Notes: generated by a model from the sequence alone, not told the origin. A stretch of DNA of 59,083 nt from Gammaproteobacteria bacterium (GCA_002725285.1 PBRC01000030.1:22117-81199); one strand, 5' to 3'. Shown: positions 1,245-54,479, numbered from the stretch's first letter. Numbers and translations are program-made.

Positions 1245-1844
1245 CTAAGCCTCGAAGCGTTTGTTTACCTCATCCCAGTTAACAAGATTCCAAAAAGCAG
1301 CAATCCAGTCGGGTCTCACATTTTTGTACTTCAGATAGTATGCGTGTTCCCATACATCGATTGTCAGTAATGGTTTCTGACCTAGTGAAAGTGGACACAC
1401 CTGATCGTGTGTGTCTGTAATCTGCAGTTCACCATCGCCATCCACAATCAGCCATGCCCAGCCTGAACCGAAGTGGTTGGCTGCTTTATCACTGAATGCC
1501 TCTTTAAAGGCGTCAAAAGAATCCCACCTGGCTTGAATAGCATCGGAGATAGCGCCGGTTGGTTCACCACCACTTGGAGACAGTGAGTGCCAGAAGAAAG
1601 TATGGTTCCAGGTACCACCAGCGTGGTTACGTACAGGGGTACGTTTGTCTTCAGAAATGCTGTCAAGATCAGTCAGAATATCTTCCAGCGACTTGTCAGA
1701 AACTCCGGCTGCATCCGCTGCAGCGTTCAGCTTGGTCACATAGGTGTTGTGATGTTTGCTGTGATGAATCTCCACTGTTTGCGCGTCGTAGTGCGGTTCC
1801 AGGGCATCATAGTTATAGGGTAATTCGGGTAATTCAAAAGCCAT
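1245..1844 (-). CDS. sodA: superoxide dismutase, Fe/Mn family, Mn-type
   Basis: 199 aa. The sequence contains MAFELPELPYNYDALEPH..EIHHSKHH, NHAGGTWNH (Gly-Gly rather than the Fe-type Ala-Gln), THDQVCPL (Gln at the Mn-SOD position) and DVWEHAYYLKYKNVRPDWI..FWNLVNWDE. GGAGAA lies 8 nt upstream of the ATG. Confidence 0.9.
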   Translation of the reverse strand: MAFELPELPYNYDALEPHYDAQTVEIHHSKHHNTYVTKLNAAADAAGVSDKSLEDILTDLDSISEDKRTPVRNHAGGTWNHTFFWHSLSPSGGEPTGAISDAIQARWDSFDAFKEAFSDKAANHFGSGWAWLIVDGDGELQITDTHDQVCPLSLGQKPLLTIDVWEHAYYLKYKNVRPDWIAAFWNLVNWDEVNKRFEA

Positions 1845-9792: not shown

Positions 9793-11166
9793 ATGACTGA
9801 GCTACATAACCCTTTAAGAAACAGCGAGTTCAGAAAACTGTTCACGGCTCAGGTCATTGCATTGGTCGGTACTGGTCTTGCTACAGTCGCGCTGACCTTG
9901 CTTGCCTATGATATGGTTGGTGGGAATGCAGGTGTTCTGCTGGGACAGGCGCTCGCTATCAAGATGGTGGCTTATGTGGTCTTTGCTCCCATTGTTGGTG
10001 GTATTGCGCATCGTTTCAATCGAAAACCACTATTAATCACTCTGGACCTTATGCGTGCCATTATCGTATTGGCAATGCCGTTCGCCACAGAGGTCTGGCA
10101 TATCTTTGTTCTTATCTTCCTGCTCAATGTTTTCTCGGCAGGATTCAAGCCCGTCTTTCAGGCGACGATTCCGGACATCATCAACGAAGAGCAGGCGTAT
10201 ACGCGTGCGCTGTCCTTTTCTCGGTTGGCGTATGATCTGGAAAATCTTATCAGCCCGGCACTTGCGGGGCTGGCACTACTCTTCTTTACATATGACTTCC
10301 TTTTCATTTCGAACTCGATCGCCTTTTTGGTTTCTGCATCGCTCATCCTCGTTACGGTGCTGCCCGGAGGTGAGTCTGTGGATCGACTCGGCGGGTTGTG
10401 GCAGGAGATCAGTTTTGGTGTTCGTTCGTACCTTAAAACACCGCGACTCAGAGGTTTGTTAGTCCTTTATCTTGGTGTTGCCTGCACGAGTGCAATGGTC
10501 ATCGTCAATACGGTGGTGTATATCAGAGAGATCCTGCAAAGGTCAGATTCCGATGTGGCCATGGCGCTTGCTGCATCAGGCGCTGGATCCATGATTGCCG
10601 CACTGTCACTGCCAAGGGTTTTGAACCACATATCGGATCGCACCGTCATGTTGTCAGGCGCAATCATCATGAGTCTGGGGCTTATGACTATCTGGCTCTC
10701 ACCAGACTTCGTAACCCTGTTGGCAATCTGGTTTATGATTGGTCTGGGTTTGTCTCTTGTTCAGACTCCTTCAGGGCGTATTGTCAATCAATCATCAGCA
10801 CCAACGGACAGGCCATCCTATTTCTCTGCTCAGTTTGCCTTAAGTCACGCGTGCTGGATGTTAGCCTATCCTGTCGCAGGACAGCTTGGTCACTTAATCG
10901 GGATCGAAACAACCGCCTTAATGCTGGGTATTCTGGTTACGTTGTTTTCAATAGTTGCGGCGCTGGTGTGGCCCAGAAACGACCCGGAAGTTATTGAACA
11001 TAGCCATGCTGATGTCAGCCATCGGCATCAACACACTCACGATATACATCACGATCATTTTCACAATAGCGATGATGCAACAGAAGATCACAACCACCAT
11101 CATACGCCACTCACCCACTCGCATCTATTTGTTATAGACGACCATCATCCTCGCTGGCCAGAATAG
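9793..11166 (+). CDS. MFS transporter with a histidine-rich C-terminal tail
   Basis: The protein is multi-TM throughout (FRKLFTAQVIALVGTGLATVALTLLAY...). The C-terminal ~58 aa HSHADVSHRHQHTHDIHHDHFHNSDDATEDHNHHHTPLTHSHLFVIDDHHPRWPE contain 17 His. The start is taken at the first ATG, because the TTG at 9745 overlaps the palindrome. Confidence 0.8.
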   Translation: MTELHNPLRNSEFRKLFTAQVIALVGTGLATVALTLLAYDMVGGNAGVLLGQALAIKMVAYVVFAPIVGGIAHRFNRKPLLITLDLMRAIIVLAMPFATEVWHIFVLIFLLNVFSAGFKPVFQATIPDIINEEQAYTRALSFSRLAYDLENLISPALAGLALLFFTYDFLFISNSIAFLVSASLILVTVLPGGESVDRLGGLWQEISFGVRSYLKTPRLRGLLVLYLGVACTSAMVIVNTVVYIREILQRSDSDVAMALAASGAGSMIAALSLPRVLNHISDRTVMLSGAIIMSLGLMTIWLSPDFVTLLAIWFMIGLGLSLVQTPSGRIVNQSSAPTDRPSYFSAQFALSHACWMLAYPVAGQLGHLIGIETTALMLGILVTLFSIVAALVWPRNDPEVIEHSHADVSHRHQHTHDIHHDHFHNSDDATEDHNHHHTPLTHSHLFVIDDHHPRWPE

Positions 11167-38511: not shown

Positions 38512-39063
38512 ATGCCAGATACAAACATCGAATCACTCGGGGCTCATCACATCGCTTATACGACCCGTGACCCGGAAGCAACCTACGACTTCTACTCTAA
38601 CAAATTAGGAATGCCTCTGCTTAGAACCGAGAATCATCTGCAGGGTGATGGTCATTTCCGCCATTTCTTTTTTGGCATGGGTAATGGTGAGGCACTGGCT
38701 TTTTTTGCTGTGGAGAATGTTGGCGAAGATGCTGATTTCAAAACGGATATTTCAACCGGCCTCGGGCTTCCTGTCTGGGCAAACCACATCGCCTTTAAAC
38801 TCAACACGCTTGAAGAACTGGCGGCCAAGACGCAACAGATGCACGACGGTGGTATCAAGGATATTCTTGAGATTAACCATGGCTGGTGTACCTCAATCTA
38901 CGCGAATGATCCAAACGGCATCATGGTTGAATTCTGCGTCACCACTGATGCAGAACAGTTTGCAGAGCAGACCGAAGAAGAAGCACTGAGGTTGCTCAGA
39001 CTACCAACCAGTGAAATTGCGGCGGAAAGCCGCAAGGAACCAACGGATGCGAAGCGCGTGTGA
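38512..39063 (+). CDS. VOC family (glyoxalase/bleomycin resistance/dioxygenase) protein
   Basis: GAHHIAYTTRDPEATYDFYSNKLGMPL and ANHIAFKL..NGIMVEF show the paired beta-alpha-beta-beta-beta pattern. Confidence 0.7.
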   Translation: MPDTNIESLGAHHIAYTTRDPEATYDFYSNKLGMPLLRTENHLQGDGHFRHFFFGMGNGEALAFFAVENVGEDADFKTDISTGLGLPVWANHIAFKLNTLEELAAKTQQMHDGGIKDILEINHGWCTSIYANDPNGIMVEFCVTTDAEQFAEQTEEEALRLLRLPTSEIAAESRKEPTDAKRV

Positions 39064-40722: not shown

Positions 40723-41187
40723 CTATTCGTATCGCAACGCAGTAACGGGATTCGACCCGGCAATTTTCAAAGCATGGATGCCAGCAACGGCCCAGGAGAG
40801 TGTGACGCCCGGAATCCCGGCGCCGAGTACGATGCCCACAGCCGATTCCGGTCGATCGGGGAAAAAGTCCAGATAGATGTTGGCAGTAAAATATGAAGCC
40901 GGTAGCGCAACCATTGATGCCCATATCACCGGTCTGGAGAATTGTCAGATCAGTATGCGAACAATCTGCAACAGGTTTGCACCCATGATCTTTCCAATGC
41001 CGATCTCCCTGGTTCGTGGTACCGCCATGAATGCAGCGAGCCCATACAAACCGGTCATGGATAAAGTCAGGGTGACGAAGGAGAATCCGTTTAATACGGA
41101 GGTCAGACCAGAATCAAATTTAAAAAGACGCTCGAATTCTTCATCAAGAAATTCAGACTGAACAGGATAGTCAGGGTTGATATCGTC
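40723..41187 (-). pseudogene. 3' remnant of an FtsX-family (MacB/LolC-like) ABC permease gene with an internal stop codon
   Basis: The minus-strand translation reads DDINPDYPVQSEFLDEEFERLFKFDSGLTSVLNGFSFVTLTLSMTGLYGLAAFMAVPRTREIGIGKIMGANLLQIVRILI*QFSRPVIWASMVAL...ALKIAGSNPVTALRYE*. It has the typical RTREIGI and C-terminal ALRYE motifs. An in-frame TGA lies at 40945..40947, another stop codon at 41188..41190, and there is no N-terminal part. Confidence 0.7.
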
Positions 41188-41373
41188 TCAGACGCTTTCA
41201 GTATGATGCGCGGGTGTCGCATGGTCAAAAATCAGGTTTTTCAGCAGCAAGGTCAGTTGCATGCGATGGATCCAGGATTGTCGTGGTTTAGTGACTTCTA
41301 GGTTGAGCCCCCGAATTTGATGGATCGCGATGGTTTGAAATCAAGATTGGTACTGCCTGTTCTCCAAGGGCGG

Positions 41374-41401
41374 ACAAAAAATGGGCTGGTCAGACCAGCC
41401 C
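41374..41401 (-). terminator. Rho-independent terminator of the peroxiredoxin-glutaredoxin operon
   Basis: On the minus strand, 9 nt after the stop codon, GGGCTGGT-ctg-ACCAGCCC is followed by ATTTTTTGT. Confidence 0.75.
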
Positions 41402-41410
41402 AGGGTGAAG

Positions 41411-41659
41411 TTAATCCAGGAATTGATCCACGAGAAAACTCTTGATTACTTCTGATGCGCGCATCGTCTCACCGTTAACGGTTAAAGTCGGTACGATTGA
41501 ATCGCCACAGAGAGCAATCAATTCGTTTTTGAACTCTTTTTCTTGAATGTCTTTTTGTGTGACTCGATCAGAAATATCGAGATTTCTGATGGTATTGAGC
41601 ACACTTTTAGAAAAACCGCATTCTTGAGAAAAGTAGAGTTCCAGCTGCGGATCAGCCAT
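41411..41659 (-). CDS. glutaredoxin-like thioredoxin-fold protein with a monothiol CGFS motif
   Basis: 82 aa. The sequence has LELYFSQECGFSKSV (the active-site position after beta1), a cis-Pro context VPTLTVNGE, and an ATG overlapping the upstream stop codon by 8 nt (ATGGCTGA). Confidence 0.7.
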   Translation of the reverse strand: MADPQLELYFSQECGFSKSVLNTIRNLDISDRVTQKDIQEKEFKNELIALCGDSIVPTLTVNGETMRASEVIKSFLVDQFLD

Positions 41660-42119
41660 TTACCTTCCTGCATTCATTGAGCAGATCCTCTGCTTTACGT
41701 AATCCGGGTATACCTGCGGATTCCGCATACTGCACAGTACCGTCCTTATCAATAATAATCGTCGCTCTGTCGGTTATCCCCTTGTCGTCATGGTAAACAC
41801 CAAAACTGGTTGCAACCGCGCCTTTTGGGTGAAAGTCCGCCAGTAAAGGGAAAGAAATTCCCCCCAGAGAGCTGGCCCAATTATCATGTGAGAACTTGCT
41901 ATCTACGCTGATACCCAAGACTTGGGTATCTGCCGATTTAAAATCTTCAAGATTCGCCTGAAGATCCGGCATTTCAGTGCTTCAGTTAGGTGTCCAATCG
42001 AGGGGATAGAATACTAACATTACGTTCTTCTCTCCCTTGAATTGAGCTAACGAATAGCTCTTATCAGCCAATTGAGAATCAAGTTCAAAATCGGGTGCTG
42101 TGGTTCCTACTTCTATCAT
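41652..42119 (-). CDS. peroxiredoxin (BCP/PrxQ-like) with in-frame UGA at the peroxidatic Cys position; candidate selenoprotein
   Basis: ORFs 41982..42170 and 41652..41972 share one frame. Read-through gives MIEVGTTAPDFEL..VMLVFYPLDWTPN-U-STEMPDL..DRATIIIDKDG. AGGAGG lies 6 nt upstream of ATG 42119. The TGA is at 41982..41984. Confidence 0.7.
41941..41967 (-). promoter_or_regulatory. SECIS-like stem-loop 14 nt downstream of the in-frame UGA
   Basis: The mRNA segment GGAUCUUCAG-GCGAAUC-UUGAAGAUUU forms 7 Watson-Crick plus 3 G-U pairs. The 7-nt apical loop starts with G and begins 24 nt after the UGA. Confidence 0.5.
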
Positions 42120-42275
42120 CAAAAACCTCCTGATTCGTGTAATAAAGATTGAAAGGCATTCACCTTTCAAGGTGAATCATAGTTCTATCCAGAATCGCAA
42201 ACAAGTTCTGAAATTATTCCCAATAGGTGACACGGGTTATACTCGTGGTTTTAGCAGTCTGATCACGAGGTTTAT

Positions 42276-43046
42276 ATGTCAAAACTAGAAGTGCACCAGT
42301 TCATCTGTTTATCTGATAACTACGGTTACCTGATTCACGACAGCGACAACGACCTGACGGCAGCCATTGATGCGCCGGAAGCGGGCCCCATAAACAAGGC
42401 ACTGGAGGAAAAAGGCTGGAAGTTGAATCATATTCTAAACACACACCATCACTTTGATCATTCTGGCGGAAATGTTGAATTAAAGGAAAAGTGGGGATGC
42501 ACGATTGTTGGTTCGAAAGACGATGCCGAACGAATTCCGGGTATTGATGTAGAGGTCGGGGATGGAGACTCCTTTGAGTTCGGAAGCCATACGGCGCAGG
42601 TATATGATCTTTCGGGCCACACCAGAGGGCATATCGTGTTCTACTTTGCCGAAGACGATGTTCTATTCAGTGGTGATGCACTCTTTGCTCTCGGTTGTGG
42701 ACGTCTGTTTGAAGGTACTCCCCAGCAGATGTGGACCAACCTGCAAAAACTGATCGATTTACCTGATGCAACGCTGGTTTACTGCGCGCATGAGTACACC
42801 CAGGCCAATGCAGCATTTGCGCTGTCAGTCGAACCGGAAAACGAGCAACTGCAGGCGCGGGCAAAAGAAATTGACGTACTGCGAGCAGAAGGTAAACCCA
42901 CGGTTCCTTCGACAATGAAACTCGAAAGGGCAACCAATCCTTTCCTCAGGGCTTCGAGTCCGCAGTTGCAGGCCAACGTCAGTCTAACGGGAGCGGAACT
43001 TGTTGATGTTTTTGCAGAAACTCGTCGGCTTAAAGATAATTTCTGA
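42276..43046 (+). CDS. gloB: hydroxyacylglutathione hydrolase (glyoxalase II)
   Basis: 256 aa. The sequence shows DNYGYLI, NTHHHFDHSGGN (the metallo-beta-lactamase motif), a CAHEYT context and a C-terminal NPFLR. Confidence 0.9.
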   Translation: MSKLEVHQFICLSDNYGYLIHDSDNDLTAAIDAPEAGPINKALEEKGWKLNHILNTHHHFDHSGGNVELKEKWGCTIVGSKDDAERIPGIDVEVGDGDSFEFGSHTAQVYDLSGHTRGHIVFYFAEDDVLFSGDALFALGCGRLFEGTPQQMWTNLQKLIDLPDATLVYCAHEYTQANAAFALSVEPENEQLQARAKEIDVLRAEGKPTVPSTMKLERATNPFLRASSPQLQANVSLTGAELVDVFAETRRLKDNF

Positions 43047-54006: not shown

Positions 54007-54077
54007 GCCACCGAAAAGAGTTCGTGAAGGCGCGCGATCAATACCAACTTCGATTGTAAATAAACGGGGATTTGAAT

Positions 54078-54479
54078 ATGAGTTTATATGGTGTCACCAA
54101 AGGGACCGATCTTGAAAAGGATATCGAGCATATCATGCACCTGGAGGAAAACGGGGTATCTACCTACTACGCGATTGCAAGGATAGCGGCAGAGAAGGGG
54201 TTGAATGATCTGGCTGACGAGTTAAGAAAAATAGCGGCAGACGAAGCCGAACATGCCGGTCTTTACGCCATGATGAATGGCGTGGTCAGTGATGATATTT
54301 TTTCCCTGCTCAGCAGAATGGCGGAGGGCGAAACCGCCGGAGAAAAAGCCATTGAAGGATTTGCCCAGAGGGTGAGTGAAGCGGGATTGGAAGATGCAGC
54401 ACAGGCTATCCGGGCTGCCGGGGTTGATGAAGGTAGGCACGGGACTAGATTGAAAGAGCTGATCGAAAAGTACTCCTGA
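54078..54479 (+). CDS. ferritin-like / rubrerythrin-family diiron protein
   Basis: Paired ExxH motifs are present (ADEAEHAGLY and VDEGRHGTRL) in four-helix-bundle-like sequence. GGGGA lies 7 nt upstream of ATG 54078. Confidence 0.65.
   Translation: MSLYGVTKGTDLEKDIEHIMHLEENGVSTYYAIARIAAEKGLNDLADELRKIAADEAEHAGLYAMMNGVVSDDIFSLLSRMAEGETAGEKAIEGFAQRVSEAGLEDAAQAIRAAGVDEGRHGTRLKELIEKYS

Follow-up and report, generated by a model that had tools for sequence, protein, structure and literature searches.

An in-frame UGA at the active site of a peroxiredoxin may mark a dead gene or a site at which selenocysteine (Sec) is inserted, and the locus described here raises the question of which of the two applies. 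It lies on the minus strand of a 59,083 nt stretch of DNA from Gammaproteobacteria bacterium (GCA_002725285.1, PBRC01000030.1:22117-81199), the whole of which is referred to below as the window. Two minus-strand open reading frames (ORFs), 41982..42170 and 41652..41972, occupy a common frame with only TGA 41984..41982 and the codons AGC ACT GAA between them. Translation through this TGA from ATG 42119 gives 155 codons (...VMLVFYPLDWTPN-U-STEMPDLQ...), and the stretch ...NVMLVFYPLDWTPN-U-STEMPDLQANLEDF... of the 155-residue product has U where peroxiredoxins carry the peroxidatic cysteine (Cys). The gene, designated prx(U), is predicted from sequence comparison to be a single, real selenoprotein gene that public annotation has mis-split. 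It is very probable that prx(U) and the glutaredoxin (Grx)-like gene behind it form an operon for a Sec peroxiredoxin, produced by recoding at a selenocysteine insertion sequence (SECIS) and recycled by the partner Grx and glutathione. The features of prx(U) are as follows.

41652..42119, minus strand: prx(U), AhpE-like peroxiredoxin, 155 codons, from the translation and the Pfam AhpC-TSA match
42119, minus strand: start codon ATG of prx(U), with stop codon TGA at 41654..41652, from the sequence
41984..41982, minus strand: UGA codon of predicted Sec46, the sole in-frame UGA of prx(U), at the peroxidatic position (P39-x3-T43-x2-U46)
42131..42126, minus strand: Shine-Dalgarno sequence AGGAGG, 6 nt 5' of ATG 42119, from the sequence

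The two split ORFs in one frame and the AGGAGG ahead of ATG 42119 had been remarked upon in a first-pass annotation of the window, and both were borne out, the former by the ORF list and the translation and the latter by inspection of the sequence. The expectation that ORF callers would split the gene was also correct, as the only GenBank annotation at the locus is a fragment of 106 aa, MBP18918.1, 'alkyl hydroperoxide reductase [Gammaproteobacteria bacterium]'; neighbouring proteins are named in GenBank as those of a Pseudomonadales bacterium. TGA terminates 16 of the 42 long ORFs in the window, prx(U) included, and the code in use is therefore the standard one, in which UGA has not been reassigned.

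The read-through protein matched Pfam AhpC-TSA (PF00578) at 9.6e-39 (132.6 bits, cutoff 26), residues 4-131 covering positions 1-123 of the 124 in the profile. When PDB sequences were searched with phmmer, the top matches were seven entries of Mycobacterium tuberculosis AhpE (Rv2238c; ~6e-30, 107 bits), and Prx1/AhpC types followed at 83 bits or less. U46 sits on the peroxidatic Cys45 of M. tuberculosis AhpE in the phmmer alignment, in agreement with the placing of the UGA by the first-pass annotation. The active-site set of P39, T43, U46 and R118 is complete, including the conserved Thr and Arg that the annotation had recognised. Across an alignment of 15 homologues from several phyla P39 and R118 are invariant, residue 43 is T or S, and both halves of prx(U) are conserved at 50-81% identity. 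The assignment to the BCP/PrxQ type made in the same annotation had to be abandoned: the NCBIfam models for BCP (NF006960) and PrxQ (NF053650) scored 55.5 bits against a cutoff of 140 and 50.9 bits against a cutoff of 260, and the Cp-x4-Cr motif of these types is absent from the window protein, unlike its TGC relatives. The PrxU equivalog (NF040737) was likewise rejected, at 88.3 bits against a cutoff of 270. Because AhpE entries are the top PDB matches and the BCP and PrxQ models fall below their cutoffs, the protein is classed by sequence similarity as AhpE-like.

No Cys lies near the active site of prx(U). C150, 104 residues past the Sec, is found in most but not all members of the Sec clade, and its equivalent is absent from the TGC relatives, which have Cp-x4-C. 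Seven Cys-type relatives (L051, L064, L070, L073, L075, L078 and L082) carry a second Cys five residues past the peroxidatic Cys (C-x4-C, PrxQ-like), and the C-terminal Cys is absent in all seven. Since the Sec types are without C-x4-C and mostly have a Cys at +104, the switch between Sec and Cys coincides with a changed candidate resolving residue.

A scan of species-representative genomes listed 600 pattern-matched stretches, of which 594 encode a relative of the query, and the codon aligned with Sec46 was read in the best 80 of these. It was TGA in 73 of the 80 and TGC in seven. The genomes with TGA belong to Myxococcota and other delta-type bacteria, SAR324, Planctomycetota, Acidobacteriota (including a sub-clade of Thermoanaerobaculia), Binatia and Gammaproteobacteria; among them is that of a cultured myxobacterium, Paraliomyxa miuraensis SMH-27-4 (L068). 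Orthologues with Cys at this codon, for which the first-pass annotation had recommended a search, thus exist, and besides the seven genomes with TGC they include an orthologue (P0002/L123) that is 69% identical and has the same grx downstream. Sec, as predicted from these codon states in the best genome matches, predominates over Cys in this AhpE-like clade. The Sec sub-clade of Thermoanaerobaculia/Acidobacteriota (L052-L081) has the motif YPLDWTPV-U-TVQMP.

An identical C-terminal product of 106 aa appears in the index of 364 sample blocks, Tara and other ocean metagenomes among them, on contigs that reach 261 kb. The split into 45 aa and 106 aa, with identical neighbours, recurred in all five of the independent assemblies that were fetched. 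A search of 5.8 billion proteins returned dozens of homologues with a length of 105-109 aa and the same start position.

Downstream of the UGA, and within the coding sequence, the messenger RNA is predicted to fold into a hairpin with the following parts.

41931..41971, minus strand: SECIS-type hairpin, its stem beginning 10 nt past the UGA, from RNA folding
41971..41967 with 41935..41931, minus strand: outer stem, 5 bp, UGCCG with CGGCA
41966..41957 with 41951..41942, minus strand: inner stem, 10 bp, GAUCUUCAGG with CUUGAAGAUU
41956..41952, minus strand: apical loop CGAAU, 5 nt

The stem GGAUCUUCAG/UUGAAGAUUU put forward in the first-pass annotation is present and starts 14 nt past the UGA; in the fold of lowest energy the structure gains an outer stem of 5 bp and is thus a little larger than proposed there. 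In bSECISearch, a bacterial SECIS element must have a 3-9 nt loop on an upper stem of 4-16 bp, a G as the first or second loop nucleotide, a distance of 16-37 nt between UGA and loop, and a minimum free energy of -7.5 kcal/mol or lower (quoted in PMC13188914). The window hairpin lies within these limits on all four published counts: a 5 nt loop caps an upper stem of 10 bp, the second loop nucleotide is G, UGA and loop are 25 nt apart, which upholds the earlier statement on spacing, and the energy is -16.4 kcal/mol. This energy is that of the isolated 45 nt element (41972..41928), for which z relative to dinucleotide-shuffled sequences was -3.5, two of the 200 shuffles being as stable.

As the hairpin lies inside the coding sequence, it was compared with recoded sequences that give the same peptide by synonymous codons. 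Its stability exceeds that of 99% of these recodings (z = -2.56). The mean z was -1.68 for 56 distinct TGA genes and -0.89 for the seven TGC relatives, and the closest Cys orthologue (P0002/L123) gave z = +0.56 and has no hairpin at the corresponding place. Within the window clade (7 distinct sequences) 96.9% of cells were paired, and two stem pairs have changed from U:A to C:G on both sides, the 3' changes altering the encoded residues (D to G and E to G). Farther marine relatives have D-I-Q...L-D-A or D-I-E...L-D-A in place of D-L-Q...L-E-D, and in these the hairpin is re-formed at the same place from other bases (AUCCA with UGGAU, AUCGAG with CUCGAU). For 30 distant relatives in a fixed register, double-sided changes were observed at 11 of 16 pairs, and the covariation score of 0.245, compared with 0.143 in shuffles, was reached by none of 500 shuffles and lay above every slid control. 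The set in register 68 was picked in part for having a hairpin there, which inflates its percentage paired but not its count of compensatory changes. The TGA orthologues therefore keep the downstream hairpin through compensatory changes, as the first-pass annotation would have it for a functional gene. A hairpin that covaries, accompanies TGA and is missing from the TGC orthologue bears, as far as sequence can tell, the signature of SelB-dependent recoding.

Other clades present variants of the structure. In the Thermoanaerobaculia/Acidobacteriota sub-clade the outer stem is built on the same Met-Pro codons as in the window, AUGCCG, paired with CGGUAU (Arg-Tyr) and not with CGGCA. One further clade (L019, L023, L033, L037, L046, L049, L056 and L069) has a short hairpin, CAGCGC-UGGAA-GCGCUG, at TGA +15 to +33. 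This hairpin has covarying variants (CUGCGC with GCGCAG, for example) and a G-G loop that comes closer to the SECIS consensus than the loop of the window hairpin.

The partner gene and the adjoining features are listed below.

41411..41659, minus strand: glutaredoxin-like gene (grx), 82 aa, monothiol motif C-G-F-S, Pfam Glutaredoxin
41402..41372, minus strand: intrinsic-terminator-like hairpin (9 bp, 6 G-C) with T-run, 9 nt past the grx stop, from a consensus scan and a pattern match only
42276..43046, plus strand: gloB, hydroxyacylglutathione hydrolase (TIGR03413), divergent from prx(U)

The ATG of grx overlaps the stop of prx(U) by 8 nt (ATGGCTGA), and the arrangement is that of a predicted two-gene operon, prx(U)-grx, closed by the terminator-like hairpin. 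The grx-like ORF scored 24.4 bits against Pfam Glutaredoxin (PF00462), marginally above the cutoff of 22.9, and has C-G-F-S near its N-terminus and a cis-Pro V-P (I-V-P-T), motifs that are conserved in the partners and the fusions. In each marine relative examined it comes immediately after prx(U), despite differing surrounding genes. In-frame fusions of prx(U) and Grx of ~250 aa were found at 27 loci, mostly in Myxococcota and Acidobacteriota (L014, L018-L021, L023-L033, L035-L038, L043, L044, L046, L049, L056, L068 and L069; match at ~10001-10760 in most); L030 is the complete chromosome CP070706.1. The Grx motif is monothiol in all 27 (CGFS, CGAS, CMFS, CGPS or CGSS); a further Prx-Grx fusion, P0004, has C-G-F-C. 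Planctomycetota members have no adjacent grx. The product of gloB matched NCBIfam TIGR03413 at 328 bits (cutoff 200.8) together with Pfam Lactamase_B and HAGH_C, and the presence of this gene beside prx(U) indicates that the organism uses glutathione.

A number of observations weigh against a SECIS-directed Sec peroxiredoxin with a Grx partner. Neither the window nor ~18 kb of added flank nor any fetched locus yielded selA, selB, selD or a tRNA-Sec; in Gammaproteobacteria selC may lie within selB (PMC13188914). With ARAGORN, the window gave no tRNA and the fetched loci no tRNA-Sec, SelA, SelB and SelD domains were absent from the 40 window ORFs scanned with Pfam, tblastn with approximate Escherichia coli SelA, SelB and SelD queries gave no match in ~120 loci, and extension of both window ends by ~10 kb revealed no Sec machinery. 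The apical-loop G called for by the consensus SECIS model is present in the window loop CGAAU but absent or shifted in the closest relatives (loops CCAAC, UCCAAAC and UCUAAGC), and on the loop G the first-pass annotation thus needs a second correction; the UGGAA loops of another clade do carry the consensus G. The hairpin centre varies by clade, at ~+24, +30 or +34, and RNAalifold predicted no pairs and no single consensus for 30 distant TGA genes. This last result arises because the hairpin occupies different registers in different clades, and fixed registers were for that reason tested by the pair counts given above. No Rfam family matched at the gathering threshold, and a search relaxed to E of 10 gave chance-level matches only. 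By sequence, the assignment of grx to the glutaredoxins is weak, as no NCBIfam match accompanies the 24.4 bits in Pfam and the best PDB match, human Grx3, is marginal (E = 0.14).

The failure to find Sec machinery in the sequence examined would also fit a UGA that is decoded as another residue, either under a reassigned code (Trp or Gly, tables 4 or 25) or by near-cognate read-through with Trp or Cys, and several public homologue entries do show W or G here. W stands at the Sec position in eight full-length entries (P0001, P0003-P0008 and P0013) and G in one (P0030). Six of the nine contigs are shorter than 1 kb and eight of the nine shorter than 1.2 kb, with P0030, which comes from NCBI, on a Planctomycetota contig of 166 kb; these entries probably arise from gene calls under an alternative code (4 or 25) on mostly short metagenome contigs. 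Reassignment is at odds with the use of TGA as a terminator in the window, an enzyme with Trp or Gly as its peroxidatic residue would be dead, and Cys alone alternates with this codon in orthologues, where the covarying hairpin is tied to TGA and is missing from the TGC orthologue. Judged on these indirect comparisons, a non-Sec reading of the UGA is very unlikely. A lower probability still attaches to two separate products, namely an N-terminal peptide of 45 aa and a protein of 106 aa that starts at ATG 41972 and has no peroxidatic residue. In the window's clade this ATG does lie four codons past the UGA, and gene callers accept it, but most other clades have Ile or Val in place of the Met (E-I-P, E-V-P) and the start is thus not conserved. 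No ribosome-binding site before ATG 41972 was noticed on reading the sequence, no scan having been made. Moreover, neither fragment is a complete thioredoxin fold, the C-terminal one lacking the entire active-site loop, and the Grx-fused relatives retain the same single frame.

The least probable of the alternatives, to which hardly any credence is given, is a nonsense pseudogene in which the peroxiredoxin was lost by mutation of TGC or TGT to TGA. It would account for the fragments that alone are given by gene callers and GenBank, and a decayed FtsX-like gene with in-frame TGAs is found ~300 bp downstream of the operon. Decay is contradicted by the occurrence of TGA at the same codon in most of the best species-level genomes and in many phyla, by the wide representation of the C-terminal product among the sample blocks with the same split in each assembly fetched, by the identity retained in both halves with invariant catalytic residues, and by the covariation of the downstream hairpin. 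This conservation effectively refutes the pseudogene explanation. When in-frame TGAs flanked by open frames were surveyed over the whole window, by eye and without domain searches, prx was the only convincing split gene.

The Sec peroxiredoxin and its Grx partner would be expected to operate in the following way. The hairpin, acting as a bacterial SECIS, would recruit SelB-GTP-Sec-tRNA(Sec), so that UGA 41984..41982 is read as Sec and not as a stop. By analogy with peroxiredoxin chemistry, the selenolate in the pocket formed by P-x3-T-x2-U and Arg118 would reduce peroxides and be converted to the selenenic acid. Oxidised Prx(U) would then be recycled by the co-transcribed, translationally coupled C-G-F-S Grx-like protein and glutathione, either through removal of an Se-SG intermediate by Grx or through direct attack by Grx. 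This step is modelled on AhpE, mycoredoxin-1 and mycothiol and on the Prx(U)-Grx fusions of other phyla. Given the adjacency of the two genes, the fusions, gloB and the AhpE/mycoredoxin-1 precedent, a one-Sec peroxidase recycled by glutathione and Grx is the most economical model, and recycling of Prx(U) by its partner is inferred from the gene overlap, the adjacency and the fusions. A resolving or protective role is possible for Cys150, which might, more speculatively, form a selenenylsulfide.

Peroxiredoxins with Sec and bacterial SECIS elements within coding sequences are well established, and prx(U) is a further member that leaves the general picture unchanged. In the Global Ocean Sampling (GOS) survey the family 'Prx, PF00578, TxxU' is among the most abundant marine selenoprotein families, with 253 sequences compared with 7,348 Cys homologues (PMC2398784), and the precedent in marine metagenomes invoked by the first-pass annotation is thereby confirmed. 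The family is also treated in reviews (PMC9312934, PMC13188914). The window protein resembles it in belonging to PF00578, in Sec replacing the peroxidatic Cys within P-x3-T-x2-U, in the existence of many Cys homologues, in a SECIS within the coding sequence and in marine origin. It differs in that the TxxU family is a broad bin defined by a motif, the GOS sequences in the part compared being Prx5-, BCP- and Prx1-like. Strings characteristic of the present clade (YPLDWTP, YPLDFTP, PLLADF) had no match in that part of the GOS dataset. The only biochemically characterised Sec-peroxiredoxin is PrxU of Eubacterium acidaminophilum (Sohling et al. 2001), which shares with the window protein the Sec at the peroxidatic position; the PrxU model has 233 positions and is named thioredoxin-dependent, whereas the window protein has 155 aa, is AhpE-like and is paired with a grx-like gene.

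AhpE of M. tuberculosis is close in length (153 aa against 155) and aligns from end to end, with U on Cys45. It is a one-Cys type that is recycled by a small Grx-fold protein and a low-molecular-weight thiol: the mycobacterial enzyme is reduced by the Grx homologue mycoredoxin-1 (Mrx1), either directly or by way of the mycothiolated enzyme. AhpE uses Cys and mycothiol, whereas the window protein would use Sec in a host that, from gloB, is glutathione-using. Mrx1, of about 84 aa, is near in size to the window Grx-like protein of 82 aa, and its motif is the dithiol CGYC as opposed to the monothiol CGFS of the window gene. The Prx-Grx hybrid peroxidases of the Haemophilus influenzae PGdx type offer a likeness in glutathione-driven reduction of peroxide and in a fused or dedicated Grx, and the selenium glutathione peroxidases (GPx) would be functional analogues with a Sec active site and glutathione. 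The Prx domain of PGdx is of the Prx5 type and uses Cys, and GPx belongs to another family of thioredoxin-fold proteins; the window protein departs from both in its AhpE-like Prx fold and monothiol Grx.

In open-access text, no paper was found that links AhpE-type peroxiredoxins with Sec or describes the pairing or fusion with Grx, and the sub-family architecture of an AhpE-like Sec-Prx with Grx has possibly not been described so far. A wider proposal, to which slightly less than even credence is given, is that these genes constitute an undescribed, self-contained selenoperoxidase module. In this module an AhpE-type one-Sec Prx would always occur with, or fused to, its own monothiol (C-x-x-S) Grx-like reductase, in at least six phyla, abundantly in the ocean and missed by annotation, with Sec predominant; it would be the bacterial equivalent, on a Prx fold, of the selenium glutathione peroxidase.

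With the annotation corrected, a marine gammaproteobacterium of cosmopolitan distribution would regain an antioxidant enzyme, as would dozens of other lineages, whose homologues are now mis-annotated as stubs of 105-109 aa or as proteins in which Trp or Gly takes the place of the catalytic residue. The dedicated Grx-like partner provides a testable model for the recycling of a one-Sec peroxiredoxin, prx(U) would add to the marine demand for selenium, and the fused form in the cultured P. miuraensis is an experimental handle.

Between the grx terminator and a radical-SAM gene lies the FtsX-like gene referred to above, the C-terminal remnant of an FtsX/MacB-type permease (window 40723-41340, minus strand; motif ...REIGIGKIMGANLLQIVRILI*QFSRPVIW...). 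It has two in-frame TGAs, at ~41190 and ~40947, and gene calls in the related assemblies pass over it; most likely it represents a pseudogene in decay and not another site of recoding. Besides gloB (glyoxalase II), redox and detoxification functions are represented in the window by a glyoxalase-family gene (38512-39063, plus strand), an Fe/Mn superoxide dismutase (1245-1844, minus strand) and a rubrerythrin-like gene (54072-54479, plus strand). The remaining content comprises family III CoA-transferases, amidohydrolases, an amidase, an acyl-CoA dehydrogenase, methylcrotonyl-CoA carboxylase-like subunits, a monomeric isocitrate dehydrogenase, pyrroloquinoline quinone (PQQ) dehydrogenases and several major facilitator superfamily (MFS) transporters, at a G+C content of ~49%. 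This gene content suggests a heterotrophic mesopelagic gammaproteobacterium.

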